39,380 nt of DNA from an uncultured Flavobacteriaceae bacterium (GTDB taxonomy: Bacteria > Bacteroidota > Bacteroidia > Flavobacteriales > Weeksellaceae): positions 1 to 39,380 of the forward strand of contig CAUQOP010000001.1 of the NCBI GenBank assembly GCA_963519505.1, read 5' to 3'. The notes below the pieces were generated by a model that was not told where the DNA came from, ran no database searches, and saw nothing but the letters and a program-made list of their open reading frames with translations. The first letter of the stretch is position 1, and each line of letters begins with the position of its first letter. Below, piece by piece: positions 7,027-36,343 of the stretch. Position numbers and translations under genes: made by a program.

Positions 7027-7114
7027 ATTTTTTTATTACCTTTGCAGAGCAAGAAGAGATTATTTATCTCAAAATAAAGCCTACATTACTTTTAAAGTTT
7101 TGGAGGCTTTTCTT

Positions 7115-7657: not shown

Positions 7658-7662
7658 ATCTA

Positions 7663-8097: not shown

Positions 8098-8098
8098 T

Positions 8099-18475: not shown

Positions 18476-20992
18476 CTATATTTTTTGTTTTTCCCAGTAG
18501 AGTTCATCATTTTTCAAGGTGACACTGACAGTATCTCCTTCATGAAACTCTCCTGCTACGATTTTTTTTGCTAAAGGTCTTCGTAATTTTCCTCGAATAA
18601 CACCTTTTAGTGGCCTTGCTCCATATTTTATGTCATAGCCTTCTTCTGAAAGATATTCTTTGGCTTCTTCCGAAATATTTAATGTAATATTTAAATTTTT
18701 AACCAAATCTAATAATTCTTTTTTGAGGTGTATTTCGAAAATTTTCAGAGCATTCTCTTTACTTATCGGTGCAAAAGGAATGATTTCTGTAAGTCTTCCC
18801 AAAAACTCTGGGCGAAAAAACCTTGTCATAATCTCCAAAAGATCGGCTGAAGCTGGAATTTTTCCATTAGCAAAAGAATTTACAATAAAATCCGAGCCTA
18901 TATTAGATGTAAAGAGAATGATAGCATTAGAGAAATCACCTTCTTTGCCAAGTCTGTCGTGCAGCTTACCTTCATCCATTATTTGAAGAAAAACATCAAA
19001 AACTGAAGCATGAGCCTTTTCTATTTCATCAAAAAGAACAATGGAATAAGGCTTTTGTCTAATTTTATTAACCAAAAGTCCGCCCTCTTCATAGCCTACA
19101 TAACCAGGAGGCGCTCCATAGAGTAATGCCGCGGAATGCTCTTCTTTAAACTCGGACATATCAAAGCGGATAATTGCATTTTCATCTTGGAAAAGAAATT
19201 CTGCCAAGGATTTTGCCAGTTCGGTTTTCCCTGTTCCTGTTGGCCCTAAAAAGAAAAATGAACCGATGGGTTGTCCAGCTTTACTCAGTCCAGAACGGGA
19301 CTCTAGAACCGCTCCAGAAATTGTAGCTATAGCGTGGTCTTGCCCTACCACTCGGCGGGAGAGAACCTGCTCTATTTCATTCAAACGCTGTTTTTCTTCT
19401 TCTTGTAGTTTTCCGATAGAAATATTTGTTTTTTGAGAAATCATCAAAGCTAAATCTCTATCAGTAATATCGCTTCGTTTTTCCAAAGCAACAGCCTCTG
19501 CCTGCTCTATTCGTTTTCTAGAAAAAGCAAAAATATTTTCGACATCAATAATTTGATTATCAAAAACTTCTGGTTCTTCTTCAGAACTTAATAAGTATTT
19601 AGTTTTTTCCACTAAATCCTTTAAAAGCCATAAAGCATGAGTTTTTAACTGTTCATCTGAATAATTTTTTGTGTTTTGTTCTAGATGTATGATCTGATTC
19701 AGAAAATGATTTTTTTCTTTCAGGAAGGACTCACCAGCAGTTTTTAGAGCAGACATTGTGTGGTCTACTAAATCTATTGCCGAAGCAGGAAGACTCTTTT
19801 CTTTCATGTACCGCTTAGACAGACGAATTGCCTCTCGAATACTTCTGTCTTCAATATTAATTTGATGGTGATTTTGATAACTTACCAATGCCTGTTTGAG
19901 CATTCTGAAATGAGTTTCATCATCAGCTTCTTCCATTTTGATAATTTCGAACATTCCTGATAGACCCTGTTCTTTTTCTATCTTTTTGGTATACTCTTCT
20001 ATCGTAGTGGCGGCAATCAGAGTGAGTCCTTTTGACAATTCACTCTTCAACAGATTGCTAATTCCCATATCTTGGTTACTGCCCAATAGTGAATGAATAT
20101 CATCAATAATCAAAACGCTTTTGGGATATAAACGAAGTTCATTGGCAATATTTTTCAGTCGATCTTCTATTTCGCCTTTGTAAGAAGCTCCAGCAATAAT
20201 AGCTCCTAAATCCAGTTCAAAAACCTCTAAACCACCTAGCAAATCAGGAATCTGATTAAAAACCAATTTTTGGACAAAACCCTCTATCAGTCTAGTCTTC
20301 CCAATGCCATGATCACCTATAATCAATACATTTTGTTTGTGATAGCGACAAAGTATCTCCGTAATGTGATGGAGTTCTGCATCTCTACCAATTAAGAAAT
20401 TATCTTCTTGATGAGTTAAATCATTTTTCTTATCCTGTTTTAATAAATCATTCTTTTTCTTAATCTCTTCTTTTTTATTGATACAATATTTTTGCAAAAA
20501 GCCTTTCTTTAAAGTAGATAAAGATTTTGGCGAAGAATTAGAAATGTTGTCAGATAATTCAAATTTTGGCTGATCTTTCAATAGTTCTTCTCTTGTGACA
20601 GGAAAGGTTTTCATTTGATCAAAACTAAATGCTGCCCCTGGTGAACTCAACGCTACCATTAGACAAAAAAGCGTAACTTCGTCCTCACTTAGCAATTCAC
20701 GGATAGCATCTGCTTCAGCAAAGATTTCATCTATAATTTCAGAAGGCTCACAACTGCGTAAATTTGGAGATTTTGGCGACTCTTCTATTCTAACTTCCGC
20801 CCATTCTTCCAAAAAAAACACATCGACTCCTAGTTTCTCTAAGTTTTTTAAAAGAGATAAATCCCTATTTAGTATGGCTTTAAGTAAATGCGCCCCAGTA
20901 TATTGCGCATTCATATTCTCTCTCCCTATTTTCTGAGCAACCTCTAATGCTTTCTGTACTTCAGAATTATATGATGATTTGAAAGTTTCCAT
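18476..20992 (-). CDS. tssH: ClpV/TssH AAA+ sheath-recycling ATPase
   Basis: 838 aa with two AAA modules. The Walker A motifs are GDHGIGKTRL and GPTGTGKTELAK. The Walker B motifs are VLIIDDIH and VLFDEIEKAH. It has a Clp-N-like N-terminus. Confidence 0.92.
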   Translation of the reverse strand: METFKSSYNSEVQKALEVAQKIGRENMNAQYTGAHLLKAILNRDLSLLKNLEKLGVDVFFLEEWAEVRIEESPKSPNLRSCEPSEIIDEIFAEADAIRELLSEDEVTLFCLMVALSSPGAAFSFDQMKTFPVTREELLKDQPKFELSDNISNSSPKSLSTLKKGFLQKYCINKKEEIKKKNDLLKQDKKNDLTHQEDNFLIGRDAELHHITEILCRYHKQNVLIIGDHGIGKTRLIEGFVQKLVFNQIPDLLGGLEVFELDLGAIIAGASYKGEIEDRLKNIANELRLYPKSVLIIDDIHSLLGSNQDMGISNLLKSELSKGLTLIAATTIEEYTKKIEKEQGLSGMFEIIKMEEADDETHFRMLKQALVSYQNHHQINIEDRSIREAIRLSKRYMKEKSLPASAIDLVDHTMSALKTAGESFLKEKNHFLNQIIHLEQNTKNYSDEQLKTHALWLLKDLVEKTKYLLSSEEEPEVFDNQIIDVENIFAFSRKRIEQAEAVALEKRSDITDRDLALMISQKTNISIGKLQEEEKQRLNEIEQVLSRRVVGQDHAIATISGAVLESRSGLSKAGQPIGSFFFLGPTGTGKTELAKSLAEFLFQDENAIIRFDMSEFKEEHSAALLYGAPPGYVGYEEGGLLVNKIRQKPYSIVLFDEIEKAHASVFDVFLQIMDEGKLHDRLGKEGDFSNAIILFTSNIGSDFIVNSFANGKIPASADLLEIMTRFFRPEFLGRLTEIIPFAPISKENALKIFEIHLKKELLDLVKNLNITLNISEEAKEYLSEEGYDIKYGARPLKGVIRGKLRRPLAKKIVAGEFHEGDTVSVTLKNDELYWEKQKI

Positions 20993-21026
20993 ATTTATAT
21001 TACTTTTATCAAGTTTTTCAATTTCA

Positions 21027-22085
21027 TTATTTTTTCATCCAAATTCCCCATTTTTTAGTTTTGTAATGGACATTGATATTTTGGATACAATTTTGTGAAT
21101 TCTTGTTCAAGCGAATAGCCGAGATTTTAATTTTATCCCCTGAAATGACTCTGCAAAATTCATCAAATGGTAAAATTTTATCATCATTGATGACTACAGG
21201 AATATCATAATTTCCACAAAGATAGTCCTTGAAATCTTCCTTTGTTTTAGACTGATTCGCGACCTGATTTAATAATAATTGAAACTGCTCATTGGAGATT
21301 TCTGGAGCTTTTTTAGGCTCAGCAAGTGTATCTTTTTTAGTATTTCCTCGTGGAGAAACAGGAATATTCTCAAGCATATCTACCAATGGATCTTTTTGTG
21401 GATTGCCTTTTGGAAGAGAAAAAGAAGCATGGGAACGCTCAAATTCATAAGATTTAAGGTCTATTTTTTGTTTAGCTTTTATGGTTTTAGGCGCTACATA
21501 AATAGTTTTTACTGCACGATGTTCTACATCTCCATTTACAATTAAGGTAACTTTTTTCTGTCCAGCTGATTTGAAATGATATGAAACAGACTGCCCTAAA
21601 GCATCAGTATCTATACTTTCACCAAAACTCCATTCCCAAGATTGTCCACCTTCTTTTTCTCCAAGAAAATCAACTTTCTGTCCAACCGTAACGACACTTG
21701 GGGCAATAATCCTAGGTAAATATCCTGTGTTTTGGCTGGTTGCTGTGATGTGAATTGATTTTTCATGAACACAGTGACCATTGATTTTCAAGCGAATAAT
21801 ATAATTTCCTGCTTTCTTATATTGGTGCAGGGTTCTCTGGCGATAATCAGGAGCTGAACCATCTCCAAAATCCCATTCCCAGCTCTTTGCATTGGGTGTA
21901 TTGTCATAAAATTCAACGACTTTATCTATTGACATATCCCCTGACACTAGAAATTTGGCACTTTCACAATCTACACGGCGAAAATACTGAACCAGTAAAA
22001 GTATAATACTAAGCAGCAGAACAATACCCAAACTCAAATAAATACGCCTATCTATCCGAAATAAAAAACCAAAATGCCTTAACAT
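21027..22085 (-). CDS. Membrane-anchored protein with two PKD domains
   Basis: 352 aa with an N-terminal TM helix (LSLGIVLLLSIILLLV). There are two PKD signatures, WEWDFGDGS and WEWSFGES. It lies 34 nt upstream of clpV on the same strand. Confidence 0.8.
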   Translation of the reverse strand: MLRHFGFLFRIDRRIYLSLGIVLLLSIILLLVQYFRRVDCESAKFLVSGDMSIDKVVEFYDNTPNAKSWEWDFGDGSAPDYRQRTLHQYKKAGNYIIRLKINGHCVHEKSIHITATSQNTGYLPRIIAPSVVTVGQKVDFLGEKEGGQSWEWSFGESIDTDALGQSVSYHFKSAGQKKVTLIVNGDVEHRAVKTIYVAPKTIKAKQKIDLKSYEFERSHASFSLPKGNPQKDPLVDMLENIPVSPRGNTKKDTLAEPKKAPEISNEQFQLLLNQVANQSKTKEDFKDYLCGNYDIPVVINDDKILPFDEFCRVISGDKIKISAIRLNKNSQNCIQNINVHYKTKKWGIWMKK

Positions 22086-22137
22086 ATATCATTTTTAACC
22101 TAACAAAAATAATGTTTTTTTGTAAATATAAAAACCA

Positions 22138-22322
22138 TTACTTTTTCTTTATGGTCTTTTCTACCCTGTAGAAACTAGTTTTGCTGATACCTGCTTGTTT
22201 ACAGGCTTTATCTATAGGAATATTTTTGTTTTCATAAAGATGAAAAGCAAAATAATATTTTTCCAAAGTTTCTTTCTTTACCCCTTTGGGTCTTCCGATG
22301 AGCTTCTTTCTTCTCCTTGCCT
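22138..22322 (-). pseudogene. Remnant of a second serine-recombinase gene (C-terminal HTH only)
   Basis: By eye it is about 88-90% nt identical to 26417..26600. It translates to ARRRKKLIGRPKGVKKETLEKYYFAFHLYENKNIPIDKACKQAGISKTSFYRVEKTIKKK*, which matches the last about 60 aa of ORF 26417..26992. Going upstream in this frame a stop codon (TAG) is reached before any ATG, and there is no catalytic domain. Confidence 0.8.
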
Positions 22323-22400
22323 CCTTTGATTCATTTCTTTTATATTCCTCTTTTTCGTCCGATTTTCTAAAACAACTTAAAATAAATTCGTCATAAATAA

Positions 22401-25148
22401 TTAGAATCCGTATTTTCTTTCTCTATTTTTAAAGGCTTCTTTACCTCCTTCTACAATATCTGCAATATGCTCTTTAATACCCATGCTTTTTAATAAATCT
22501 GTTTCGGTTTCAATTTTAGCAAATGTATTTTCTATTGCACCATTGATATAATCAAATTTATAAAGACTCGAAGTTTCTTTGTCATTTTGTCCCTTTTGAT
22601 TTGCAACAATAACATTTTCTGCATCGGCATTTACAACAATATTTGCATTGTGTGTAACCAATATAATTTGTCTTTCAATTTTCTTATTCCTTAGATAAGA
22701 GATAATATTTTCACTTACAGAACGATTGTCCAAGTTATCTTCTGGTTGGTCAATCAGAATTGGTGATTTTGATTTACTCAAGCCTATTATTAACATTAGT
22801 ATCACAAAACTTGCTTTCCCTGTGGACATCTCACCAAGTTTATCATTTTTGTAAGTGATTTCCCAATAGTCATAAAAATAATCATCCAGTATTTTTTTCA
22901 TAATTTCTCGTTGGTTATATCTCGTATTTACCACATATTTTCCACTTAAAACATCTTCAAATATATTTTTTACCTCACTTTCCAAATGTGAATATTCATA
23001 TTCCGAAATTCTTGTCTTTTTACTTTCTAAGATATCATAATTCAAATTTGAAGCACTTCTGCCATCAGTGAAATCCAAAATATTTTCACGGAATTTTTGG
23101 AAATTAAATTGTGCTATTCCCCTTATTTGTAAACCGTCTTTTTCAAGTTCTACTGTTCTATCTTTCAATAACTCTATAATGTTCATATACTCATCAAAAG
23201 ATTTTTTATATAATTGGAATAAATTGTCTTTTGTTTTGATTGCAAATTCTTTTTTCTCCGTGATACTTGTATTGAGAGTATTTATATCCTCCAAAAGCTT
23301 TTTGTCATTTGCAATAGATCCATTTAGTTTTTTTATTTTTTCTTGAATCTCTTCATTCTTTTGGTACGGCTTCATCTCATTTTCAATACTATTCTTCTGA
23401 GTGATGATTAGATTTAACTCCTCTTTAAAAATATTATTATTTACAAAAACCTTTTTCCCCTCACTATTCTCTTTAAGTTCTATTTCTTTAATCAAATTTT
23501 CAAGCTGATTTATTGAATCACTTAGAAAACTTAATTTAGTTTGATAATACTCTCTAAATCTATCTGTCTTAATATTTTGTAAAAAGGTTATTTTTTTAGT
23601 TTGTAAAATAACTAATTCATTTTTAAGTTCTTGCAAGAAAGTATTCGTTTGAGAAAAATCACTATTCAGTAAATCTTTTCTTTTTTGATTTTGCTGTTGT
23701 TGTTCTTGAATACTTTTGTATTGCTCAATATGCTCATCGGATAATCCTGCTTCTTTGTTTGACTTTTCAACTTCTTCAGAGTTTGTTTTAATACTAGTCT
23801 CTAAAACCTCTTTTTTTGGTTTTGTGTTTAATTCGGCTTCTAATTTTTGTATATCATCAAGAGTATCAAAGTAGTTATCTATCAGATCATCTCTTTTTTT
23901 GTCATATCCTCTTACTCTTTCAATAAAATTATTATACTTTTGTTTTGAATCAGTATCCTCACAAATAAGATTTCTAACTAATTTATTTAGAGATTCTCCT
24001 TTTCCACTTAACTCAGGTTCAGCAAGTTTTACCAATTCATTTTGTGGAATATACTTTATATTTGGAATTAGAGAATTATGCCCGTCTTCTCTATCAGATA
24101 TTTTTTGAGAAATACCAGCTTTCGTTGTAATTTCAAAATTAAAGCCTGAATCAATAGATTTTAGACCATATCTTTCTTCCCCATTATTTTTAAAAAGCAA
24201 TTTGTCTTTTGTATCTGCTAATAAGGTTTTTGCAATAGAATATAACAATATAGACTTTCCTGACGATTTTCCACCGATAATAACATTAAGGTTAGGGTTA
24301 AAATATATCTCTTCATTACTAAATTTATTATTAGGAGAAATAAATTTCACTTTGTCAATAATTTCCTTATCTTCTTTGAAGTCGGGTTTTTCGTCTTGCA
24401 TTCTTACTCTTTCTTCAGGTTCATAAATAATTTGTTTTAATCCTTCAAAAGTAGGATCTGCTTTTATCCAACAGTTTTCTTTTAAGGAATAATTCTTTAT
24501 ATCATGATTATCAGAGGCAATAATCATAGGGATATACTTTCCTATATTAGGAAAAACATTTTTTATATATCCTTCCTTATCAGTTACTTTCCCAAGTTCA
24601 TAAATATCAACTAAATCAACTATATCTTCTTTTTGTGCTATGGCGTGAGGTAAGGAATTTGTAATATTTTCAATGTTATTAGTTTTACTTCCTGCATGTA
24701 TGGTTGTTATTCCTCCTAATTCTTTTATTAATTTCATGGTGTCTATTAAATCACAATATACTTCATTGTGTTTTTTATTAGAACCTTCTATCTGTTTTAT
24801 ATTTGTAGTGTTTTTTAGCTGCCCCCATATATAAGAAATATTAGAAGTGCCTGAAAAAATACCTATGAAATGTATTGGATCTTTACCTCTTGCATCAGCT
24901 AAAAATTCTATTCCAGGTAAAACAGTTATTCCTTTATCTTTACCAAGTTGTTGCAAATTTTGGATTCTATCTATATCCATTATATGATGGTCTGTTATTG
25001 CAACAACAGATATTTCATTTTCAGCTAATATATTTATTATTTCTTGGTCTGTTACTCCTTTATTTTTATAATCATATGATGAAGGAGTATGAAAGTGTAA
25101 ATCCCATTTTCTCCATTCAGAGCCTCTGTTTACTTTGTTTGTATTCAT
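22401..25148 (-). CDS. PHP-domain phosphoesterase fused to SMC/ABC-like ATPase with long coiled coil (Ppl-like candidate defence protein)
   Basis: The N-terminal PHP motifs are WDLHFHTP, AITDHH, PGIEF, TTIHAG and IASDNHD. Walker A is IIGGKSSGKSILL. A K/E/Q-rich coiled-coil region of about 300 aa follows. Near the C-terminus are EMSTGKASF, the Walker B ILIDQPEDNLDNRS and LVTHNANIVV. The start is set at MNTNKV (25148), which avoids a 62-nt overlap with the upstream gene. Confidence 0.75.
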   Translation of the reverse strand: MNTNKVNRGSEWRKWDLHFHTPSSYDYKNKGVTDQEIINILAENEISVVAITDHHIMDIDRIQNLQQLGKDKGITVLPGIEFLADARGKDPIHFIGIFSGTSNISYIWGQLKNTTNIKQIEGSNKKHNEVYCDLIDTMKLIKELGGITTIHAGSKTNNIENITNSLPHAIAQKEDIVDLVDIYELGKVTDKEGYIKNVFPNIGKYIPMIIASDNHDIKNYSLKENCWIKADPTFEGLKQIIYEPEERVRMQDEKPDFKEDKEIIDKVKFISPNNKFSNEEIYFNPNLNVIIGGKSSGKSILLYSIAKTLLADTKDKLLFKNNGEERYGLKSIDSGFNFEITTKAGISQKISDREDGHNSLIPNIKYIPQNELVKLAEPELSGKGESLNKLVRNLICEDTDSKQKYNNFIERVRGYDKKRDDLIDNYFDTLDDIQKLEAELNTKPKKEVLETSIKTNSEEVEKSNKEAGLSDEHIEQYKSIQEQQQQNQKRKDLLNSDFSQTNTFLQELKNELVILQTKKITFLQNIKTDRFREYYQTKLSFLSDSINQLENLIKEIELKENSEGKKVFVNNNIFKEELNLIITQKNSIENEMKPYQKNEEIQEKIKKLNGSIANDKKLLEDINTLNTSITEKKEFAIKTKDNLFQLYKKSFDEYMNIIELLKDRTVELEKDGLQIRGIAQFNFQKFRENILDFTDGRSASNLNYDILESKKTRISEYEYSHLESEVKNIFEDVLSGKYVVNTRYNQREIMKKILDDYFYDYWEITYKNDKLGEMSTGKASFVILMLIIGLSKSKSPILIDQPEDNLDNRSVSENIISYLRNKKIERQIILVTHNANIVVNADAENVIVANQKGQNDKETSSLYKFDYINGAIENTFAKIETETDLLKSMGIKEHIADIVEGGKEAFKNRERKYGF

Positions 25149-25158
25149 AATATATTTT

Positions 25159-26352
25159 TTAATATAAAAATCCGAACAACCATAGAGGAATAGATTTTCC
25201 ATTAGGTTGAACAATATCATCTTTTACGATCCAAGAATTTTCTAATCCTTTAATTTGTGATGTTGTTTTGTTTTTTCCTCCTATTTCAAAGGTGTACTTA
25301 TCGTCTACTAAAAAATCAGCTTGTTTAGACTGGGATATTTTATGATTCACAACTATTTGATTATAGAAGAATATTTCCCGAACAGTTCCTATATTAGGAT
25401 TACCCTCATTTAAAGCAAATAGAAGGTTTGTGTTATTCAAGTATACTTTTTCAGGTTTTTGAATTGAAGCTATACTATAATTTTGAGGTTGTAACAAATA
25501 CAATAAACGAGATTCTTCCAAAAAGTATAGGTAGTTGTTTAATGAATTTCTATGAATATTTGTTTTTCGGGAAAGCTCAGATAAATTGGGGGAGAATGGA
25601 ACTTGCTGACTTACAATGTATAACAATTGTAAGATTTTTTTAGCTTGCCTAATATCAAATCCCTTAATCTCAGCCATATCTACTTCTACAATTAACCTTA
25701 CCAATTGTCTTAATTTCTGGTGATAAGTATGTATATTTTCCATAAAGAAAGGATAACAACCTACTTCTAAATATTCATTAAAGAACTCATATGGCTTAAA
25801 ATCAACAGAAAAATATTCATTAAAATCAAAATTGGGATTTAATATTTCTTGCAAAGAAATTTCAGAAATATGAACACCTTTAGATAAGGAAAGAAACTCC
25901 CTGAAAGAAAGCCCATGAAGTTCATAAATTACAGCTCTTCTACTTAAATCGCCTTCATTATGTGTGATATCAATAATTGATGAGCCTGTAAAAATTATTT
26001 TTAAATCATGATATCTATCGTATAGATTTTTAATTTCTTGAGACCAACTAGGGTATTTATGTACTTCATCCAATACCAAAACTTTTCCTCCCTGCATATA
26101 GAACTCCTTCCCTATTTCTAGTAAACTATGGTTAGAAAAGAAAATATCATCTAATGAAATATATAATTTTTGAGTTTTTGGCAAGTTTAATTGAGCTAAA
26201 TACTGAAGTAACATTGTTGTTTTTCCAGTCCCTCTCGCTCCTTTTATACCAATAAGATTATCATTCCAATCTATTTTATAATATAGACTCCTAAAAAAAT
26301 CCAATTTAGTTTTTAATAGATGTTGATTGGATATATCAAACAATTCTTCCAT
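25159..26352 (-). CDS. AAA+ ATPase of the AAA_14/DUF4143 type
   Basis: Walker A is GIKGARGTGKTTML and Walker B is VLVLDEVHKY. The C-terminal ADFLVDD..FEIGGK resembles the nuclease-like DUF4143 end. The likely start is MEELFD at 26352; the ORF track extends to 26412. Confidence 0.75.
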   Translation of the reverse strand: MEELFDISNQHLLKTKLDFFRSLYYKIDWNDNLIGIKGARGTGKTTMLLQYLAQLNLPKTQKLYISLDDIFFSNHSLLEIGKEFYMQGGKVLVLDEVHKYPSWSQEIKNLYDRYHDLKIIFTGSSIIDITHNEGDLSRRAVIYELHGLSFREFLSLSKGVHISEISLQEILNPNFDFNEYFSVDFKPYEFFNEYLEVGCYPFFMENIHTYHQKLRQLVRLIVEVDMAEIKGFDIRQAKKILQLLYIVSQQVPFSPNLSELSRKTNIHRNSLNNYLYFLEESRLLYLLQPQNYSIASIQKPEKVYLNNTNLLFALNEGNPNIGTVREIFFYNQIVVNHKISQSKQADFLVDDKYTFEIGGKNKTTSQIKGLENSWIVKDDIVQPNGKSIPLWLFGFLY

Positions 26353-26416
26353 TTTATAAATGCACAAATAAATATGCAATTTATAATTATTTTTGCATAT
26401 TTCAAAATGCAAAAGC

Positions 26417-26992
26417 TTACTTTTCTTTCTTCAAAGTCTTTTCTACCCTGTAGAAGCTGGTTTTGCTTATACCCGCTTGCTTGCAGGCTTTATCGATAGG
26501 AATGTTTTTGTTTTCATAAAGATGAAAGGCAAAATGATATTTTTCCAAAGTTTCTTTTTTTATTCCTTTGGGTCTTCCGATGAGTTTCTTTCTTCTCCTT
26601 GCTCCTTCGATTCCTGCTTTCGTTCTTTCACTGATGAGATTTCTTTCAAACTCAGCCACTGCTCCAAAAATCTGAATGATAAACTTCCCATTGGCAGAAG
26701 TAGTATCAAAAGCGGGTTCAGAGATACTTTTGAAGAAAACACCTTTTTGATTAAAAAACTCAATGAGCTCAATCATATTTTTTAAAGAGCGGAAAATTCT
26801 ATCGGTTTTATAAACAATAACCACATCTCCCTCGCGAAGGAAAGAGAGCATTTCATTGAGTCCTTTTCTGTCTTCTCGCACACCACTGGCAATATCAGTG
26901 TAAATTTTCTCGCACCCTTGCTGTTTTAATAGTTCTATTTGGGTTTCTAATTTCTGCTCAGCAGTAGAAACACGCGCATATCCGAAAATCAT
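26417..26992 (-). CDS. Serine recombinase (resolvase/invertase family)
   Basis: 191 aa. The N-terminal MIFGYARVSTAEQ carries the catalytic Ser context. The C-terminal HTH is IPIDKACKQAGISKTSFYRV. Confidence 0.9.
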   Translation of the reverse strand: MIFGYARVSTAEQKLETQIELLKQQGCEKIYTDIASGVREDRKGLNEMLSFLREGDVVIVYKTDRIFRSLKNMIELIEFFNQKGVFFKSISEPAFDTTSANGKFIIQIFGAVAEFERNLISERTKAGIEGARRRKKLIGRPKGIKKETLEKYHFAFHLYENKNIPIDKACKQAGISKTSFYRVEKTLKKEK

Positions 26993-27496
26993 AATTTAGA
27001 TATTTAATGTTTATTGTTATGGCTTTTTGTTTATTTATCTATAGGAATATTCTCCAATATATTTCTTACAAATAATGGTAAATATTTTTCATAAAAAAGA
27101 CACTTTTTAATTATTTAAATTGGAACAAATACAATATCCAAATTTATAAAATAATCAAAAAACAAGTTCCGAAGTTTTTTACTCCTTTTTTATCAAAAAA
27201 AAGCAAGATAGTCTTTGCCTAAAACTTGAAAAAGTTGTATATACAAAGACACATCTTGCACCTCTCATTTCGGTTAGCTTTCAGATATTTTATATTTTGG
27301 TAAAGGAATTTTATTATAGCAACATAAAACATTGATTTTCAATGTCTGTTTTTTGTAAAATAGATTTTGGACTCTAAAAATATGCTTATAGTACAGAAGA
27401 AATGAAGTTCTAAAAAAGCTTGTTTTTTTAGTATAAATAATGTTTTTATTTGGTATTTATTGATAACCAGCTATTTAGCAAAACAGCTCTGTCACA

Positions 27497-27574
27497 TTTT
27501 TTACAGGTTGCTCTCCTAACCCTGCAGTATATTTTACAGGTAGATGATATACCTTGAATTATTTTTTACAGGTT
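27497..27574 (+). repeat. Three direct copies of TTTTACAGGT
   Basis: The copies are TTTTTTACAGGTT at 27497-27509, ATTTTACAGGTA at 27531-27542 and ATTTTTTACAGGTT at 27561-27574, with about 30-34 bp spacing. They lie in a 737-nt ORF-free gap upstream of the recombinase. Confidence 0.4.
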
Positions 27575-27658
27575 GGTAGGGTAATTTAAAATAATGAAGT
27601 AGACAAAAAACTAGTACCCTAACTTTAGAATTTCATTGGTAATTTTATATGAAAGACA

Positions 27659-27688
27659 CTTTGATAGTATCATTTGATACTATCAAAG
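27659..27688. repeat. Perfect 30-bp palindrome
   Basis: CTTTGATAGTATCA tt TGATACTATCAAAG has 14-bp arms and a 2-nt centre. It lies 41 nt beyond the stop of the DUF234-type ATPase gene. It could be a terminator or a dimeric protein binding site. Confidence 0.6.
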
Positions 27689-27729
27689 TCATGTTTTTAA
27701 TCACTAAGTAAAAAACTCAGTATTAGTTA

Positions 27730-29049
27730 TTACATATCCTCCAAGCTCCACGCATAAAAATCTTTTTTATAGGAATTAAATTGCGGATTTTGGATTAAAA
27801 ATTCGGCAGCTTTTTGTCTTAGTTTTTCTATATTTATATTGTTCTTTTGTCGTTTTATTTCCGCGAAATCTATGCTTTTTTCTATTTCATTTACTGCTAT
27901 AAAATCTATTTCAGTTTCTCCTTTTCTATCCCAATAGTTGCCGATGCTCGTATAGGCTTGAGAAATTTGAGCATTTTCTCTAAAATACTTTTCTAACATA
28001 TGTCCGCTGAATGAAGAAAAATCCCTTTCTATGATCTTTTGCAGCTGTTCATATGCCCCTATTTCTATCATTGATGAATATTTATAGATGAACCTAAACC
28101 AAAACATGATAAAATTATCTTCTATCTGATATTTTACATTTTTAGTTGAGCTTTTTGTAAAAATAGGCTGTTGTTTTTTTATCAGATTAAAATCTCTCTC
28201 CATTTTGGTTAAATAGCCTCCAATTTCCTTTTTTAACAAGTTTTCTATCTCAGCTCTTGTATTTTTCCCTTCAGAAATAGCCGTTAAAATGCTAAAATAA
28301 GTTCCATATTCTTTTCCAAACTCATCTATCAAAAGATTTTTCCCTTCAGAAATGAAAATAGAATTCTCATCTATCATTCCTTCTATCATTTTTTCTTTGC
28401 TTGTCCATCCATTATCCATAAAAAGCTGAACATATTTTGCCACACCTCCTGTAAAACTGTACAAAGCCAATAAATCATCAGGGGTATAGCTGGGACTATA
28501 ATCTGATAAAATTTCCTTTAAAGTATTGGTTTTAAATGCTTGTAGCTTTATGAAATGATTCGCTCTTCCGAATAAAGGTTCTTTATAATTTTCAAAAATC
28601 TTGTACATCAATGAAATTACAGAGCCTGAAACTATTAGATTCAGCTTAGCCTTATCCTTATGCAAATCCCAAATTCTTTGCATATCGCTATAAACCGATG
28701 GATTTACTGTGAAAAACTCTTGAAATTCATCAATTATCAAGGTAATGTTTTGTTCATATGATAGCTGAACAATATATTCAAAAAGAACAGAAAACGAATT
28801 TACTTCTCCCAAAATAGGTGGATTTAATTTCTCTTTTAATTCTTGTAGAAAATCCTGGCATAAGATAACCTCTGATTTTTTTGCTACAAAAAAGTACAGA
28901 AACTTTGTATTTTCATAGGATTTTAACAAAAGTTGAGTTTTTCCAATTCTTCTTCTCCCAGTTACCACACTAAATTGAGCATTCTTTTTTGATTGCTCTT
29001 TAATTTCGAGTAGTTTTTTGATTTCTTTTTCTCTGTTGTAAAATTTCAT
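27730..29049 (-). CDS. AAA+ ATPase of the Arch_ATPase/DUF234 type with PD-(D/E)xK-like C-terminus
   Basis: Walker A is TGRRRIGKTQLL and Walker B is TLIIDEFQEF. The C-terminal GETEIDFIAV...IDFAEIKRQ looks like a D..E.K nuclease motif. The likely start is MKFYNREKE at 29049; the ORF track extends to 29088. Confidence 0.75.
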   Translation of the reverse strand: MKFYNREKEIKKLLEIKEQSKKNAQFSVVTGRRRIGKTQLLLKSYENTKFLYFFVAKKSEVILCQDFLQELKEKLNPPILGEVNSFSVLFEYIVQLSYEQNITLIIDEFQEFFTVNPSVYSDMQRIWDLHKDKAKLNLIVSGSVISLMYKIFENYKEPLFGRANHFIKLQAFKTNTLKEILSDYSPSYTPDDLLALYSFTGGVAKYVQLFMDNGWTSKEKMIEGMIDENSIFISEGKNLLIDEFGKEYGTYFSILTAISEGKNTRAEIENLLKKEIGGYLTKMERDFNLIKKQQPIFTKSSTKNVKYQIEDNFIMFWFRFIYKYSSMIEIGAYEQLQKIIERDFSSFSGHMLEKYFRENAQISQAYTSIGNYWDRKGETEIDFIAVNEIEKSIDFAEIKRQKNNINIEKLRQKAAEFLIQNPQFNSYKKDFYAWSLEDM

Positions 29050-29324
29050 ACCACAAACATAAGAAATGTGCATTTCCGAAACAAACATTTCGAAAAAAAT
29101 ATTTAATTTATAAAAATCTATGAATCAAAGTTGAAGGTTTTATTGATGTATATTTTGAGATTTATAATTATTTATAGTTCCAAAAACTATCTTAAAAGAA
29201 AACAAATAAATAAAACGGGAAAAAGAACTATTTTTAGAAAAGATTATTTGGAGGAATTATAGTTTCAAAAAAGGGTCGGTTTTTAGGAAAAATTTAACGG
29301 TTTAATTATTTCATATTAAAATGG

Positions 29325-29379: not shown

Positions 29380-30540
29380 ATGACAGAAACATTACATTAT
29401 TTTCCTGTTCATTGGATAGATGGAATGAAGATTAACAAAGGACATTTTTTATCTGTCCAAGATAGTATGAGTGATATGCTCCGTGATGGAATTGGCATCC
29501 ATTTATCAATGCAAAATTATGGTCTGCTTCCTGTTGAAGACTCACTTAAACTGAGTTTAAGTATTGATAATCATAAACTTCTTCGTGTACGAGTAGAAGA
29601 ATGTCAAGCAGTAACTCCAAACGGCTCCCGAATATCCATTGGAAAAGGTGTTGCTGAACAATTGCAATTATCCATTCCTTATCCAGAAGCAGCATATGAG
29701 TTAAAAGACGATGAAAATATAACACTTTTAGCATGTATTTCTGTAAACCCATTTAAACGAATTCCTTTTGGGGAGCCAGATCCAGATGAGAATCCGCCAA
29801 GATATCCATTTACACAACCTGAATATAATCTACATTTAATTCCCGAAAATGAGCTAAAAAACACCGTAGGGTTTGGGCTTAGCTACCTTACAATTGGCAA
29901 GGTTTTAGTAAATGCTGGAGAGTCGCGTATAGATGAAAATTATATTCCTCCTTGCGTGAATGTTTCTTCACATTTAAAATTAAAGGATTTATATTCATCT
30001 ATAGAACATTTTTATGGTCAAATGGAGCTTTATTCAGTGCAGATAGAGCAGAAAATTCGGGTAAAAAATCAAAATAATTCCTTAGCAGTAATGATTGGGC
30101 TTTTAGCAGAAAAGACACTTAATTATTTAGGAATGGAGATCAATCGTTTCCGTTGGTTGTCACCACATCGTCCACCTGTTGAAATGTTCCTTTCTGTAGT
30201 GAGTTTAGCAAGAGTTTTGAAAAATTTCATTGATGCTAAATCTGGTGCAGGTAAGGAGGAACTACTCAATTATTTTTCGGAATGGTGTAATCTGACACAA
30301 GGAAATTTTGAGCAAATATTTACTGAGGTTATTAATTCTGATTACGATCACAATCAGATGGATATTGTCATCAAAAAAATTGTAGTTTTTATGAAAACAT
30401 TAGAGGAACTGTTTTCAATTCTCAACCGCTTGGATTATATCGGCAAGAAGCGAGACGGTAGTATTTTTGTTTCTGAAAACACAGACGAACGAGAGGCTGT
30501 TGTCCATGCAAAAAGAAGTAGAACTTTTTTGGCTGATTAG
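29380..30540 (+). CDS. tssK: T6SS baseplate subunit TssK
   Basis: 386 aa. The N-terminal PVHWIDGMKINKGHFLSVQD parallels the canonical TssK start (W.EGM.L.PQHFQQ). Confidence 0.85.
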   Translation: MTETLHYFPVHWIDGMKINKGHFLSVQDSMSDMLRDGIGIHLSMQNYGLLPVEDSLKLSLSIDNHKLLRVRVEECQAVTPNGSRISIGKGVAEQLQLSIPYPEAAYELKDDENITLLACISVNPFKRIPFGEPDPDENPPRYPFTQPEYNLHLIPENELKNTVGFGLSYLTIGKVLVNAGESRIDENYIPPCVNVSSHLKLKDLYSSIEHFYGQMELYSVQIEQKIRVKNQNNSLAVMIGLLAEKTLNYLGMEINRFRWLSPHRPPVEMFLSVVSLARVLKNFIDAKSGAGKEELLNYFSEWCNLTQGNFEQIFTEVINSDYDHNQMDIVIKKIVVFMKTLEELFSILNRLDYIGKKRDGSIFVSENTDEREAVVHAKRSRTFLAD

Positions 30541-30609
30541 ATCTTTGATCTTGATTAAAATAACCTACAACAATTAAAACAATAAACAACTCCAAACAGA
30601 CAGTAAAAA

Positions 30610-31122
30610 ATGGAAGTATTAAATAAGACAGAGCGTAGAAAATCATTTTTATTTTTCTTAATATTTTTTGGTCTTACGATGGGATTGCTTCTTATAGCAG
30701 TGTTTTTCAATGTTGCTTTTCCTTTTGTAGAAAATCAACTATTAAAAAAAGAAAACCAAAAGATGAAACAGGAAATGGAAATTCAAAATCGATTTTCGTT
30801 TCAGTTGGAGCAGGTGAAAGGTGCGGTCGATTCTATTGGTATTGCAGGACAAAATGATTATTTTAACGAAAAACTAGCACTTTCTGTCTTGGCAGATATG
30901 TATAAACAACTTCCTAAGGACTCTTTACAAAACAAGACAATGTATAACAATACCATCATGACTTACAAAAGTCTGATTGATGCCAAAAAAGAAATCAAAC
31001 ATTTGTCTATGAATAGAGAAACCATGGATAGTTTGAGTAGTCTAAACAAAGCTCTAAAGGAAGAATATGATAAAATGAAAACTGATCTAGAAGTATGTAG
31101 ACAAATTTATCAATCCCAATAA
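30610..31122 (+). CDS. tssO: Candidate T6SS-iii transmembrane protein TssO
   Basis: 170 aa with a single N-terminal TM helix (FLFFLIFFGLTMGLLLIAVFF) followed by a coiled-coil-like region. The size and topology are those described for TssO, and it lies directly after tssK. Confidence 0.55.
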   Translation: MEVLNKTERRKSFLFFLIFFGLTMGLLLIAVFFNVAFPFVENQLLKKENQKMKQEMEIQNRFSFQLEQVKGAVDSIGIAGQNDYFNEKLALSVLADMYKQLPKDSLQNKTMYNNTIMTYKSLIDAKKEIKHLSMNRETMDSLSSLNKALKEEYDKMKTDLEVCRQIYQSQ

Positions 31123-31125
31123 GAG

Positions 31126-31638
31126 ATGAATATTCTTAAGTTTTTTCTATTTGGGTTTAGTTTCATTGCTGTAAATTTTGCTTTCAGTCAAGAAAATGAA
31201 GAAATCCCTTGTAATATTTTAGAAAATCAACAGAAACTGCACAAAAAACATTTTTTGAGTGGGACCCCTCTTCTTTTGATGGTTGATAATGCTGAAAACC
31301 TTTATGTAAAAGCGCAGATTGGAAAAAGAACAGATAAAATATTTTTATATCTGAATGTTTTAGCACCAAATGTCTGTATTGAAAAAGGGAGGAATGTTGA
31401 TATTTATTTTCATTCTGGCGAAATTCTACGCCTAAAGAATGATTTTCGACTGAATTGTGAAGGAATATGGGTAAAACAATTGTCCCAAAAAGAGCTTCAG
31501 AAATTTACAGAATATCCTATCCAGCATATCAAGATTTTTTCTTACCATAAAGATTATGAGTTGAATATTTCTGAGGAACAAGACCAAAATATTAAATCCC
31601 AGATAGCATGTTTGGAACGACTTAAAGTAAGAAAATAG
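31126..31638 (+). CDS. Secreted/periplasmic hypothetical protein inside the T6SS operon
   Basis: 170 aa with the signal peptide MNILKFFLFGFSFIAVNFAFS|QE and no lipobox Cys. It starts 3 nt after the previous stop. Confidence 0.5.
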   Translation: MNILKFFLFGFSFIAVNFAFSQENEEIPCNILENQQKLHKKHFLSGTPLLLMVDNAENLYVKAQIGKRTDKIFLYLNVLAPNVCIEKGRNVDIYFHSGEILRLKNDFRLNCEGIWVKQLSQKELQKFTEYPIQHIKIFSYHKDYELNISEEQDQNIKSQIACLERLKVRK

Positions 31639-31669
31639 ATAAAATTTTAACTCAAAAGACAAAAATAAA

Positions 31670-32371
31670 ATGTCAAGCAGGTTGCCCTCTCTTAATCTTC
31701 GTTTGGGAGATTTTCAAGCCCATAAACAAATTGATAATGAGAATGAAATCTCCAATGTTCTAGTTAGAACAGATTCAGAGATGAAGAAGCATACAATTAC
31801 TCTTACCATTACAGATAAGGAAATTGGGACAGCAAAAATTGAGGTAGAGGGACAAGTGCTAAAAATCCCAACATATCAATTGAGAGTTACTGATGATAAA
31901 ACTGAAGAAATTAGAGATTTTCAGGTCATTAGAGACTTTCCAAAGATGAAAAAGAAAGAGATTAAAAAATCATGGCTGTCTTTTTTAGGAATTTCTTGGT
32001 TTGATAGTGAAAATTATTTTTACGAAAATGTGTCTTTTGAACCTAAATACAATGAAATAGAGAAATTTCAACTGGTAAAACACCGTCATTTGGAAGAAAA
32101 CCAGCTAGTTTATGAGCTTCAAAATGCTGAAAATAAAGTCATTGTTTTTTCTGGAAGTATCCCTAAACTAAATGATAAATCAGAAAATAACCCATATTTT
32201 TGGATTATAGATCATGTTGAAGGTCAGAGTTTTATAGGAGATATATTGTATCGTGAGAAATTTTTGAAATTAACTCCCCAAATAGAACTTTTATTAATAA
32301 AAAGGAAGAAAACCCCTAAAAATATAGAGAGTAACAACAAGGGAGAAATCCAGCGGTTTATTTATATATAA
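31670..32371 (+). CDS. Hypothetical T6SS-embedded protein (possible TssP-type component)
   Basis: 233-aa ORF between the tssO-like gene and tssE with no signal peptide. The assignment is positional only. Confidence 0.35.
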   Translation: MSSRLPSLNLRLGDFQAHKQIDNENEISNVLVRTDSEMKKHTITLTITDKEIGTAKIEVEGQVLKIPTYQLRVTDDKTEEIRDFQVIRDFPKMKKKEIKKSWLSFLGISWFDSENYFYENVSFEPKYNEIEKFQLVKHRHLEENQLVYELQNAENKVIVFSGSIPKLNDKSENNPYFWIIDHVEGQSFIGDILYREKFLKLTPQIELLLIKRKKTPKNIESNNKGEIQRFIYI

Positions 32372-32385
32372 TTAGTAAATGAAAA

Positions 32386-32814
32386 ATGAAAGGACTATAT
32401 TATAAACTTCCCTTGGATTTTCAAGGGTTGATGAAGCGAAAAGACATAGATAAAATATCGATAGAAGATTCTATTCGACAGCATATTTTTTTGATTTCTA
32501 CAACCTCTTTTGGGGAATGCAAATTTGATGAGAGTTTTGGTTCAGAGATTTGGGAAATGGATTTTGACCTGCTCAAAAGCAACAACAACTTACGAGAGAT
32601 GATGATGAATAGTCTAAAGAGAGATATTTCTAAAAACGAGAAACGAGTAGTTTTGGAGGATATAAGTGTTGAAATTTCAGATTATAATCTTGGAACAATG
32701 GGCAAAACAAGAATGAAAAAGCGGGTGCAACTTACCCTCAAAATGCTGATAAAAGAGACCAATCGTCCATTATTTTTTCAAAATTCCTTTTTTGTAGGAC
32801 CAATTTCTTATTAG
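32386..32814 (+). CDS. tssE: T6SS baseplate wedge protein TssE (GPW/gp25 family)
   Basis: 142 aa. SIRQHIFLISTTSFGECKFDESFGSEIWEMDFD is the gp25-like core. Confidence 0.85.
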   Translation: MKGLYYKLPLDFQGLMKRKDIDKISIEDSIRQHIFLISTTSFGECKFDESFGSEIWEMDFDLLKSNNNLREMMMNSLKRDISKNEKRVVLEDISVEISDYNLGTMGKTRMKKRVQLTLKMLIKETNRPLFFQNSFFVGPISY

Positions 32815-32930
32815 ATAGTTTTAATTATTTAGTAAAGGTTAAAAATTATTTTTTAATAAATTATAAAAAGTATAATACTATAAATAATTTTTATAGAGGT
32901 TATAAAAATTATTGAAAAAGTATAAAAGAC

Positions 32931-32960
32931 TTGCACAAGAAGAAAAAATTGCTATCTTTG
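32931..32960 (+). promoter_or_regulatory. Candidate Bacteroidota promoter for the hcp-vgrG operon
   Basis: TTG at 32931-32933, a 19-nt spacer, then TATCTTTG (TAnnTTTG) at 32953-32960. This is about 70 nt upstream of the first hcp. Confidence 0.4.
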
Positions 32961-33031
32961 TAGGAGAGTATTATTCTGAGAAGAGAAGCCATATTTGGTT
33001 ATATTGAATATTAAAATTAAATTAAAATACT

Positions 33032-33418
33032 ATGTCATTTAAAGCAAAATTAAAAGTTGCAGGAAAAGAACGCAACATCTTGTCAGTAGATTTCGGAATG
33101 CTGCAAGAAACAGATCCTACAGGAAGACCCTCATCAGTAACTAGAGGCGGAAAAATCCACATCGTTGTAGAAGGTACAGGTGAAACTGACCTTTTTGAAT
33201 GGATGACCAACTCCTTTGAACGAAAAGATGGAAGCATTGTTTTTTATAAGCGAGACAGTGATGCTACCTTGAAAGAATTAAAATTCAAAGAAGCCTATAT
33301 TGTAAAATATAGAGAAGATTTTGATTCCACTGGTGATACTCCATTAAAAGAAGTTTTCACACTGAGTGCTAGAGAAATAGAAATGGGAAATGCCATTCAC
33401 ACTAATGAATGGGTGTAA
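33032..33418 (+). CDS. tssD: T6SS tube protein Hcp/TssD, copy 1
   Basis: 128 aa, the Bacteroidota TssD size. MSFKAKLKVAGKE.N.LSV...QETDPTGRPS.VTRGGKI..VVEGTGE is typical. Confidence 0.85.
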   Translation: MSFKAKLKVAGKERNILSVDFGMLQETDPTGRPSSVTRGGKIHIVVEGTGETDLFEWMTNSFERKDGSIVFYKRDSDATLKELKFKEAYIVKYREDFDSTGDTPLKEVFTLSAREIEMGNAIHTNEWV

Positions 33419-33452
33419 GTTCAATTAACAAAAAACATTAAAAATTAGTTTT

Positions 33453-33839
33453 ATGTCATTTAAAGCAAAATTAAAAGTTGCAGGAAAAGAATATAATGTA
33501 CTGAGTGTAAGCTATGGATTGTTCCAAGAAACTGATCCTACAGGGCGTCCTTCAACAGTTACAAGAGGAGGAAAAATAGATATTACTGTAGAAGGCACAG
33601 GTGAAACTGACCTTTTTGAATGGATGACCAACTCCTTTGAACGAAAAGACGGATGTGTGGTTTTTGTCAAGAGAGACAGCGATGCTACTCTGAAGGAACT
33701 AAAATTCACAGAAGGATATCTTGTAAAACACAAAGAAAACTTTGATTCTACGGGAAAAAATCCGCTTACGGAAAGTTTTACAATATCTGCAAGAAAGATA
33801 GAGATGGGAACTGGCGCTTACGAAAACGAATGGGTATAA
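33453..33839 (+). CDS. tssD: T6SS tube protein Hcp/TssD, copy 2
   Basis: 128 aa, by eye about 75% identical to copy 1. The first 11 codons are identical. Confidence 0.85.
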   Translation: MSFKAKLKVAGKEYNVLSVSYGLFQETDPTGRPSTVTRGGKIDITVEGTGETDLFEWMTNSFERKDGCVVFVKRDSDATLKELKFTEGYLVKHKENFDSTGKNPLTESFTISARKIEMGTGAYENEWV

Positions 33840-33882
33840 GCTGGAAGATCAGCCCATTTACAAAAACAAAATAATAAAAAAT

Positions 33883-33937
33883 GGACAATAAAAAACTAAT
33901 GCTTAATTATGTTTTTTGTTGTTCGTTTTTCTTTTTT
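33883..33937 (+). terminator. Possible weak rho-independent terminator/attenuator after hcp copy 2
   Basis: GGACAATAAAAAAC (33883-33896) can pair with GTTTTTTGTTGTTC (33911-33924), including G-U pairs. It is followed by GTTTTTCTTTTTT. The stem is AU-rich, so this is uncertain. Confidence 0.3.
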
Positions 33938-34019
33938 AAGAACCTAAAATATCAGTAGATTGAAGGGTTAAAAAAGTAAAAGATTAACATAAATCATTAA
34001 CTATTAAATATTAAGAAAA

Positions 34020-34406
34020 ATGTCATTTTTATCAAAATTAGAATTGGACGGAGGTAGTTATAATATCCTAGAATGTTCATATGAATTTACCCAGTCAATA
34101 GACAGTATGGGAAAACCTCAGGGAATGCCTAAGGGCGGCGAAATTAGAATAAGAATAGAAAGCATGGGCAATCCAGACCTGCTCAACTGGATGCTGGATC
34201 ACAGCCAGACCAAAGACGGAAAAATTATTTTCTTTAGAAGAGATGCGATGAGCAAACTGCAGGAACTGAAATTTGAAAAAGCCTATTGTATCAATTTCAA
34301 GGAGCATTTTAATGCTAATGATACCCAGCCTTTACAAATTGAAATGGTGCTGATTGCCAAAACATTAGATATTAATGGTGCTGCTCATCAAAAAAATTGG
34401 AGGTAG
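34020..34406 (+). CDS. tssD: T6SS tube protein Hcp/TssD, divergent copy 3
   Basis: 128 aa with the same architecture (MSF..KL...G..YN.L...Y...Q..D..G.P......GG.I...E) but only distant identity to copies 1 and 2. Confidence 0.75.
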   Translation: MSFLSKLELDGGSYNILECSYEFTQSIDSMGKPQGMPKGGEIRIRIESMGNPDLLNWMLDHSQTKDGKIIFFRRDAMSKLQELKFEKAYCINFKEHFNANDTQPLQIEMVLIAKTLDINGAAHQKNWR

Positions 34407-34481
34407 ACAAAGCCATCAAAAAAAGATTGAAAATTAAAATAATAAAATAGAAAAAATTAACCTAAAAACTGTAGAATAAAG

Positions 34482-36341: not shown

Positions 36342-36343
36342 AA

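Follow-up and report, generated by a model that had tools for sequence, protein, structure and literature searches.

A TrlF-family gene and a PDC-S01-type ATPase gene side by side in a variable insert of a Capnocytophaga type VI secretion cluster

Two adjacent ATPase genes and their families

The 39,380-nucleotide (nt) stretch of DNA analyzed here (contig CAUQOP010000001.1 of an uncultured Flavobacteriaceae bacterium; hereafter "the window") is AT-rich, with a G+C content of about 30%; its nearest named relatives are Capnocytophaga, and most of the related contigs come from oral metagenomes. On its minus strand, a gene encoding an ATPase of the AAA_14/DUF4143 type is followed at very short distance by a gene encoding a larger protein of the TrlF family, in which a PHP phosphoesterase domain is fused to an ABC-type ATPase (Table 1). 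A preliminary description of this DNA had proposed that the two genes form an undescribed sensor/effector pair involved in defence. The translations confirmed both reading frames, their coordinates and their 10-nt spacing, and also every motif quoted in that description (WDLHFHT, ITDHH, PGIE, SDNH, GGKSSGKS, LIDQPEDNLD and ADFLVDD...FEIGGK), all of which are invariant or nearly so in family alignments. The partnership itself fared differently: as detailed below, the two families were not found together outside this one locus in the 79 TrlF and 80 AAA_14 loci analyzed, and we consider it probable that they are two independent modules, with TrlF acting autonomously, rather than a conserved two-gene defence system.

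Table 1. Features of the locus, with positions given in the window (aa, amino acids)
Feature	Positions	Strand	Details
TrlF-family gene, 915 aa	25148->22401	minus	PHP phosphoesterase plus SMC/Rad50-like ABC ATPase; start MNTNKV
PHP domain, aa 1-260	24369..25148	minus	HxH, DHH, E81, H151, DxH
ATPase head N lobe, aa 261-398	23955..24368	minus	Walker A GGKSSGKS, Q-loop Q369
Coiled-coil arm, aa 399-671	23136..23954	minus	AlphaFold2 secondary structure; apex near aa 558-568; no Cys hook
ATPase head C lobe, aa 672-915	22404..23135	minus	Signature MSTGK, Walker B LIDQPEDNLD, H-loop H833
Intergenic spacer, 10 nt	25149-25158	minus	Between ATPase stop codon and TrlF ATG
AAA_14/DUF4143 ATPase gene, 397 aa	26352->25159	minus	Pfam; PADLOC PDC-S01 type
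Serine recombinase gene (resolvase plus HTH_7)	26417..26992	minus	64 nt upstream of ATPase gene; Pfam Resolvase E=4.2e-43
Resolvase 3'-end remnant (aa 128-190)	22144..22332	minus	Alignment and repeat search; just downstream of TrlF
ATPase_2/DUF234 ATPase gene	27730..29088	minus	PADLOC PDC-S27 type, E=5.5e-51; neighbour in variable insert, outside the pair

The large protein matches the NCBIfam model NF045780 ("TrlF family AAA-like ATPase") with 584.2 bits against a cutoff of 350 (E=7.7e-175), and the alignment is full length, running over residues 8-914 of the protein and positions 1-944 of the profile. Judged by this match, it adds a member to an already named family, for which we found 1187 matches at E<=1e-30 among 1.84 billion cluster representatives. 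The expected PHP residues (H18, H20, D53/H54, E81, H151, D213 and H215) and ATPase residues (G292-K298, Q369, S775/G777, D800-D804 and H833) are all present, at columns that vary hardly or not at all in an alignment of 45 family sequences. An AlphaFold2 model (mean predicted local distance difference test (pLDDT) score 83, predicted template modelling score 0.71) comprises a PHP barrel (residues 1-260), the N lobe of an ATPase head, an arm and the C lobe of the head; the arm is a nearly unbroken helix extending from residue ~385/399 to 671 between the two lobes, with an apex of low confidence near residues 558-568, in agreement, at about 270 aa, with the coiled coil of about 300 aa that had been predicted to split an SMC-like head. 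Using Foldseek, the N-terminus of the model was matched to RNase AM, PHP phosphoesterases and the PHP domain of Pol III alpha, and the remainder to MukB, JetC, Rad50 and LmuB. When the TrlF profile was searched against PDB sequences, the only matches were generic heads (SMC, Rad50 and AriA) and a single PHP esterase; no structure of Ppl or TrlF was among them.

The TrlF reading frame stays open up to an ATG at 25220, which would yield 939 aa, and public gene calls (P0001, P0007 and the syntenic homologues) start at this upstream ATG, giving proteins of 938/939 aa and a 62-nt overlap with the ATPase gene. Because stand-alone TrlF homologues align only from MNTNKV/MDKKSF, the ATG at 25148 is the likelier start, which indicates that the N-terminal extension (25149-25220) of the public calls is an annotation artefact.

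The architecture had been likened to that of Ppl, which Gao et al. reportedly described in 2020 as a single-gene anti-phage PHP-ATPase. This likeness holds for the architecture and the PHP domain: both proteins are single chains of ~900 aa in which a PHP nuclease domain precedes an ABC-type NTPase, their first ~310-330 residues are homologous (E ~1e-35 to 1e-37) and, like Ppl, close relatives of the window TrlF are found as autonomous single genes. It does not extend to the family models, which cover the N-terminal third only: the Ppl model of NCBIfam (NF042955) has its best stretch at residues 9-314 and reaches 127 bits where the cutoff is 1000, and that of PADLOC (PDLC02208, 894 positions) gives E=3.7e-35 over residues 9-332. 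Since the Ppl models match just these first residues, the window TrlF is best classified as belonging to a sister family of Ppl and not as its orthologue. Ppl is a PHP 3'-5' exonuclease that is gated by its NTPase, inhibited by nucleoside triphosphates and able to sense 3'-OH ends (PMC12904381). By analogy with Ppl, the PHP domain of TrlF would be a metal-dependent exonuclease, and the SMC-like head, by binding and hydrolysing nucleotides, would determine whether it can reach DNA ends; the head and the arm would act as sensors of the state of nucleic acids or nucleotides and as the gate of the nuclease, which would then degrade invading DNA, and TrlF would be able to do so alone.

With its PHP domain fused to a Rad50/SMC-type head bearing a long coiled coil, TrlF may be seen as a single-chain counterpart of the machines that combine a nuclease with an SMC-like ATPase. 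Like Mre11-Rad50/SbcCD, Lamassu and Wadjet, it couples a coiled-coil ABC ATPase to a metal-dependent nuclease domain, consistent with its structural matches to Rad50, JetC, MukB and LmuB. Unlike in these systems, the nuclease is a PHP domain in cis and not an Mre11, Toprim or Cap4 module on a separate chain, there is no kleisin-like, LmuA or LmuC partner, and the apex of the arm has no zinc hook. The assignment to Lamassu fails in particular: the LmuB model matches weakly (E=1.8e-06), no LmuA-like or LmuC-like gene is adjacent and the nuclease is fused in cis.

Concerning the smaller protein, searches with Pfam models supported its assignment to the DUF4143-type ATPases (AAA_14, E=2.6e-29, 102 bits; DUF4143, E=4.4e-07, 30.2 bits; both above the gathering cutoffs), and six PADLOC PDC-S01 models also matched (E from 9.5e-28 to 2.6e-10), so that by sequence it is a PDC-S01 member. 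Its C-terminus had been taken for a PD-(D/E)xK remnant. The DUF4143 C-terminal domain has indeed been placed in the PD-(D/E)XK superfamily (PMC3424549), but D346, E356 and K362 are invariant in the family alignment, and the D...E...K arrangement looks like an intact nuclease-type site and not like a remnant. Besides its P-loop ATPase part, the protein has a winged-helix region and a small domain of the PD-(D/E)xK type; its AlphaFold2 model has a pLDDT of 89, and no significant relative was found in the PDB by sequence or by fold. The family is enormous (at least 8000 candidates, every one of those scored at E<=1e-5) and strikingly constant in length, at 397 aa.

Across prokaryotes, only three candidate "defences" are more common than PDC-S01 (PMC12988326). 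It is a candidate system only, proposed from its embedding in defence regions, and nothing ties it to TrlF; the window ATPase resembles it as a single-gene unit of varied contexts with both Pfam domains. Because ATPases of this type are so abundant, the adjacency of one of them to a defence gene carries little information. A literature search on DUF4143 and DUF2130 turned up the PD-(D/E)XK survey and otherwise nothing beyond passing mentions. That no description of the pairing exists is explained, on this evidence, by its not being a system; each of the two proteins already had a name (TrlF, NF045780; PDC-S01).

Occurrence of each gene without the other

The pairing was assessed from both genes. 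Starting from TrlF, we scanned one genome per species and analyzed 79 best-scoring loci from other species of many phyla, 64 of which have an intact TrlF gene. Two hidden Markov models of the ATPase, one clade-specific and a broader one built from relatives with 42-100% identity, detected no AAA_14/DUF4143 gene within 8 kb of TrlF at any of these 79 loci, even at E<=1. Starting from the ATPase, we analyzed 80 metagenome loci centred on AAA_14 relatives (42-100% identity), 54 of which have at least 1 kb of downstream sequence, and TrlF was found only in L121 and L122, which represent the same Capnocytophaga locus. The pair was confined to contigs that share the gene order of the window (resolvase, AAA_14, TrlF, PKD and ClpV), so pairing in independent lineages, on which the sensor/effector proposal depended, is essentially absent. 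One apparent second pairing, in L123, was rejected: the gene encodes a different ABC ATPase (36% identity over 125 residues) and lies on the opposite strand.

The closest relatives of the window TrlF (P0002-P0004, 85-91% identity) stand alone in a housekeeping neighbourhood, between Peptidase_U32 and Peptidase_C92 genes. Nucleotide homology between the window and these stand-alone loci is restricted to positions 25161-22401, which correspond to the TrlF open reading frame (ORF) plus 13 nt upstream of its ATG, and TrlF is thus mobile as a single ORF. A CTnDOT-like conjugative element houses further relatives at 81% identity as well as a second group, 75% identical across 79% of the query; what follows TrlF there is either a run of four unknown genes or a superfamily 1 (SF1) helicase gene 12 nt downstream.

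The ATPase keeps varied company. The genes tightly linked downstream of other AAA_14 relatives encode an AddB-like nuclease, a polysaccharide lyase, YjeF, FkbH or Cas1; relatives with 75% identity reside in Rhs/YD toxin-immunity arrays, and those with 70% identity are solitary, beside an integrase fragment. In L099-L106 (positions 6001-8300), a variable gene of 325-364 aa starts 19 nt after the 75% AAA_14 paralogue, with an Ntox23 domain in L105.

At the 64 loci with an intact TrlF gene, 28 of the genes have no tightly linked neighbour on the same strand, and about 18 loci have neighbours of restriction-modification type within three ORFs, a tally made from neighbour clusters with annotated representatives. 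A Pfam scan covering two ORFs on each side of TrlF identified ResIII (11 upstream, 4 downstream), Methylase_S (8), N6_N4_Mtase (6 upstream, 2 downstream), HSDR_N (4 upstream, 2 downstream), YhcG PDDEXK (3), DUF2130 (2 upstream, 2 downstream) and the SLFN_AlbA_2 plus HATPase_c_4 combination typical of TrlG (6 downstream). TrlF relatives are also carried by 970 plasmids, 721 of them conjugative, and the lactococcal phage-resistance plasmid pNP40 has one downstream of a DUF2130 gene. TrlF is a large family, in large part associated with plasmids and restriction-modification operons, and a sister of the validated anti-phage protein Ppl.

This distribution bears on whether TrlF belongs to immunity at all. 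The family takes its name from the temperature restriction locus trlR-trlF-trlG of Photorhabdus laumondii (PMC7554251), and one could suppose, as was first suggested for that locus, that TrlF is a growth-control or DNA-maintenance factor for which the neighbouring genes are irrelevant. The sole published genetics on a locus containing TrlF describes a temperature-dependent growth arrest and no phage phenotype (PMC7554251), this paper alone turned up in our search for literature on TrlF and TrlG, and no phage assay of TrlF was found there. We nevertheless hold a non-immune role to be highly unlikely: suppressor mutations of the Photorhabdus phenotype mapped to trlG and none to trlF (PMC7554251), the TrlF gene is patchy, horizontally exchanged and mosaic in its alleles, the protein is homologous to Ppl, and its gene is strongly associated with restriction-modification operons, with plasmids and elements that are conjugative and with phage-resistance plasmids. 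The window locus is moreover not of the Photorhabdus type. Its TrlF has the same architecture (PHP, split ABC head and coiled coil) and falls into a similar length class, but it is only ~24% identical to the gammaproteobacterial members and has no adjacent TrlG (AlbA_2 plus HATPase_c_4), TrlR or small helix-turn-helix regulator; its neighbours are the AAA_14 ATPase and resolvase genes upstream and the resolvase remnant and a PKD protein gene downstream. A TrlG-type gene is found near TrlF at 6-7 of the 64 loci.

The DUF2130 neighbours deserve mention in their own right. DUF2130, itself classed as PD-(D/E)XK, directly adjoins TrlF on pNP40 (L201, NC_010901.1, 11074-14944) and also in L045, L046 and L065; the hosts of this arrangement are the lactococcal plasmid, a Streptococcus, an alphaproteobacterial metagenome-assembled genome and an actinobacterium, making it a recurrent pairing across several phyla. 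No description of it was found in the literature searched, and a paper on the lactococcal plasmidome is silent on those genes of pNP40. If a real two-gene system with TrlF is sought, the DUF2130 and TrlF genes of pNP40 are the better candidate.

Allele turnover of TrlF beside a constant ATPase

The contigs syntenic with the window provide a natural allelic series. Across them, the recombinase is 100% identical to that of the window at the aa level, the AAA_14 ATPase 99.7-100% and the PKD protein 97%, whereas TrlF drops to 82% in the L017 allele, to 65% in L111 and to ~40-50% in L121, where it is split by frameshifts. In this last contig (positions 2676-5338), the gene is of a divergent TrlF type with Walker A GGRGTGKS and is broken over four frames, either as a pseudogene or by an assembly error, and the ATPase upstream of it is intact and 100% identical.

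The window gene (22401-25148) was compared with L001-L019, L111-L122 and P0001-P0120. In a sliding-window comparison with L017, residues 1-398 are 96-100% identical and residues 748-897 are 92-96% identical, with 46-84% between these blocks; the stand-alone allele L009 shares 88-98% identity with the window allele over residues 500-750. The variable segments, which reach to about aa 750, have a synonymous divergence (dS) of 0.9-1.4 and a ratio of nonsynonymous to synonymous divergence (dN/dS) of ~0.3. Recent positive selection was considered as their source and rejected, since dS is very high alongside this dN/dS; the combination indicates old allelic types shuffled by recombination and not recent sweeps of point mutations. 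Among 113 close TrlF relatives, conservation reaches 86-100% in the two head regions, residues 226-400 and 751-915 (86-96% for the N lobe and 94-100% from residue 751 onward), residues 401-750, which comprise the coiled coil and an adjoining segment, are intermediate, and residues 26-225 of the PHP domain are the most variable. The idea that the divergent N-termini might be a different effector domain was discarded, as HxH...DxH is kept and the sequences align from the start of the profile. In Capnocytophaga, the PHP and coiled-coil types of TrlF are recombined among three contexts, namely the stand-alone chromosomal site, the CTnDOT-like conjugative element and the insert in the type VI secretion cluster. 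Within one oral genus, these modules have hence been swapped across three contexts around a nearly identical ATPase head, which points to them as the parts of Ppl-like proteins that may be under conflict-driven diversification; the arm and the PHP surface would be those that phages drive to diversify.

A different reading would make the two genes a lineage-specific pair expressed from one transcript, with TrlF as the main effector and the AAA_14/DUF4143 protein sensing, licensing or adding a second nuclease. Beside the short spacer and the invariant D...E...K residues, which suggest that the nuclease-type domain is probably active, such a pair would fit the adjacency being kept in all contigs of this locus through at least four TrlF allele classes, the direct repeat that brackets both genes as one 4.3-kb unit (see below) and the existence of other recurrent two-gene arrangements of TrlF (with TrlG and DUF2130). 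We regard it as unlikely, however: neither direction of the search found the genes together outside this locus, the nearest TrlF relatives stand alone, and E. coli B was not protected against T4, T5 or T7 by the one PDC-S01 and the one PDC-S27 representative assayed (PMC12881386). The ATPase moreover remains unchanged while the TrlF alleles drop to 65% identity or less, and one contig has an intact ATPase beside a frameshifted TrlF; this lack of co-variation, together with an intact ATPase beside a possibly degraded TrlF, argues against a specific partnership.

Co-transcription of the ATPase and TrlF genes, possibly with the resolvase gene too, is plausible because the spacer is so short, and no terminator was found. 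A scan for sigma-70 promoters and terminators over positions 21900-27800 gave fewer promoter-like sites than shuffled sequences, the promoter model being unsuited to Bacteroidota, and Rfam and tRNA scans of the whole window returned no matches.

Several observations weigh against our preferred reading of two independent modules. The spacer fits an operon, and operon partners are often functionally linked. No Bacteroidota -7 motif (TAnnTTTG) is recognisable between the two genes, which also fits an operon; this is weak evidence because the window has about as many copies of the motif as chance would give (68 matches versus 61 expected). The adjacency persists in many oral-metagenome contigs through several replacements of the TrlF allele. 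The genome and metagenome scans used the best 80 of longer match lists, so that the 79 TrlF loci are a best-scoring subset and not a random sample, and ORFs were called with a simple longest-ORF heuristic, which is crude. The literature searched holds no biochemical or phage-challenge data for any TrlF-family protein, and the Photorhabdus suppressors that spared trlF belong on this side too. Lastly, TrlF elsewhere recurs with partners of PD-(D/E)xK or nucleic-acid-binding type (DUF2130, YhcG, a Cap4-like nuclease and TrlG), and the window may follow such a loose logic of TrlF plus a variable partner. In its full form, this logic would make TrlF a constant core that recruits interchangeable nucleic-acid-targeting partners by lineage, the candidates being DUF2130, YhcG-type and Cap4-type PD-(D/E)xK proteins, TrlG, the SF1 helicase and the Capnocytophaga AAA_14/DUF4143 protein, and the Capnocytophaga pair would be a genuine undescribed two-component variant. 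We find this quite doubtful; if it were true, the shuffled PHP and coiled-coil modules would be determinants of specificity or anti-inhibitor determinants.

On balance, we retain the reading in which two separable single-gene modules, the ATPase being of a kind found beside unrelated genes, adjoin in a variable, recombinase-associated insert, their adjacency being probably a local historical accident kept by position, as opposed to a sensor/effector partnership under conservation. While finding a new defence system of two genes would have counted as a discovery, what the evidence supports is a local juxtaposition, which spares an experimental campaign on the wrong unit.

The recombinase, the repeats and the type VI secretion setting

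In minus-strand order, the variable insert consists of the DUF234 ATPase gene, the serine recombinase gene, the AAA_14 ATPase gene and TrlF. It interrupts a Bacteroidota type VI secretion cluster whose flanks lie at 18476-22085 and 29380-39296: the left flank encodes a ClpV-like ATPase (18476-20992) and the PKD protein, and the right flank encodes TssK-like, TssO and gp25-like proteins, three tandem Hcp genes, VgrG, a Tle1-like effector and DUF2931 proteins. In L015-L018, a second AAA_14 gene occupies the place of the DUF234 ATPase of the window. The gap between the flanks holds Tae4 effector and immunity genes in other strains, as well as the second AAA_14 gene (L015).

The remnant just downstream of TrlF (22144-22332) forms a direct repeat of 177 nt with the 3' end of the resolvase gene (26426-26602, within 26417-26613), with 90% identity and a spacing of 4282 nt, so that the ATPase and TrlF genes are bracketed as a 4.3-kb segment. 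The remnant is also present in L015-L019, L111, L121 and L122, and the arrangement is kept in all syntenic contigs. The repeats could allow excision of the AAA_14 and TrlF segment. The same arrangement would be left behind if a 4.3-kb circle had integrated at the 3' end of the resolvase gene through one crossover.

These features raise the question of whether the ATPase might instead be a mobility helper of the serine recombinase, assisting it in target selection or regulation in the manner of MuB, TnsC or IstB, with TrlF as an exchangeable 3' cargo. The recombinase and ATPase genes are 64 nt apart and 99.7-100% conserved across contigs while the gene downstream of them is replaced, a resolvase 3' remnant lies beyond that cargo, AAA_14 relatives are found upstream of many unrelated genes, and Foldseek detected a weak similarity of the ATPase to MuB and TnsC (E ~0.06-0.12). 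These Foldseek matches are not significant, however, and of the 80 loci centred on AAA_14 relatives, none but this same Capnocytophaga locus has a resolvase homologue, most AAA_14 relatives having no recombinase nearby. The breakpoints of TrlF homology furthermore coincide with the ends of its own ORF and not with the 177-nt repeat unit, and we judge a helper role to be very improbable.

A few further observations concern the non-coding parts of the insert. The 18-nt sequence TTTATCTATAGGAATATT is located at 27034-27051, ~40 nt upstream of the resolvase start codon, and an identical stretch is found in the downstream remnant (22207-22224); the corresponding stretch of the intact resolvase gene (26489-26506) differs from it at 2 positions. 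By a rough estimate, ~0.01 exact 18-mer pairs would be expected by chance in 9.5 kb of such composition, and the two copies could be a recombinase site or the trace of an older rearrangement. The DUF234 ATPase is the third ATPase with a nuclease-type domain in the insert, and its gene is followed by a hairpin with a perfect 14-bp stem (27658-27689) and then by a 740-nt stretch with no ORF of at least 40 aa. Between this gene and the resolvase gene, the non-coding minus strand carries three direct copies of CCTGTAAAA(A), ~30-45 nt apart, at 27500-27575, which could be candidate protein-binding subsites.

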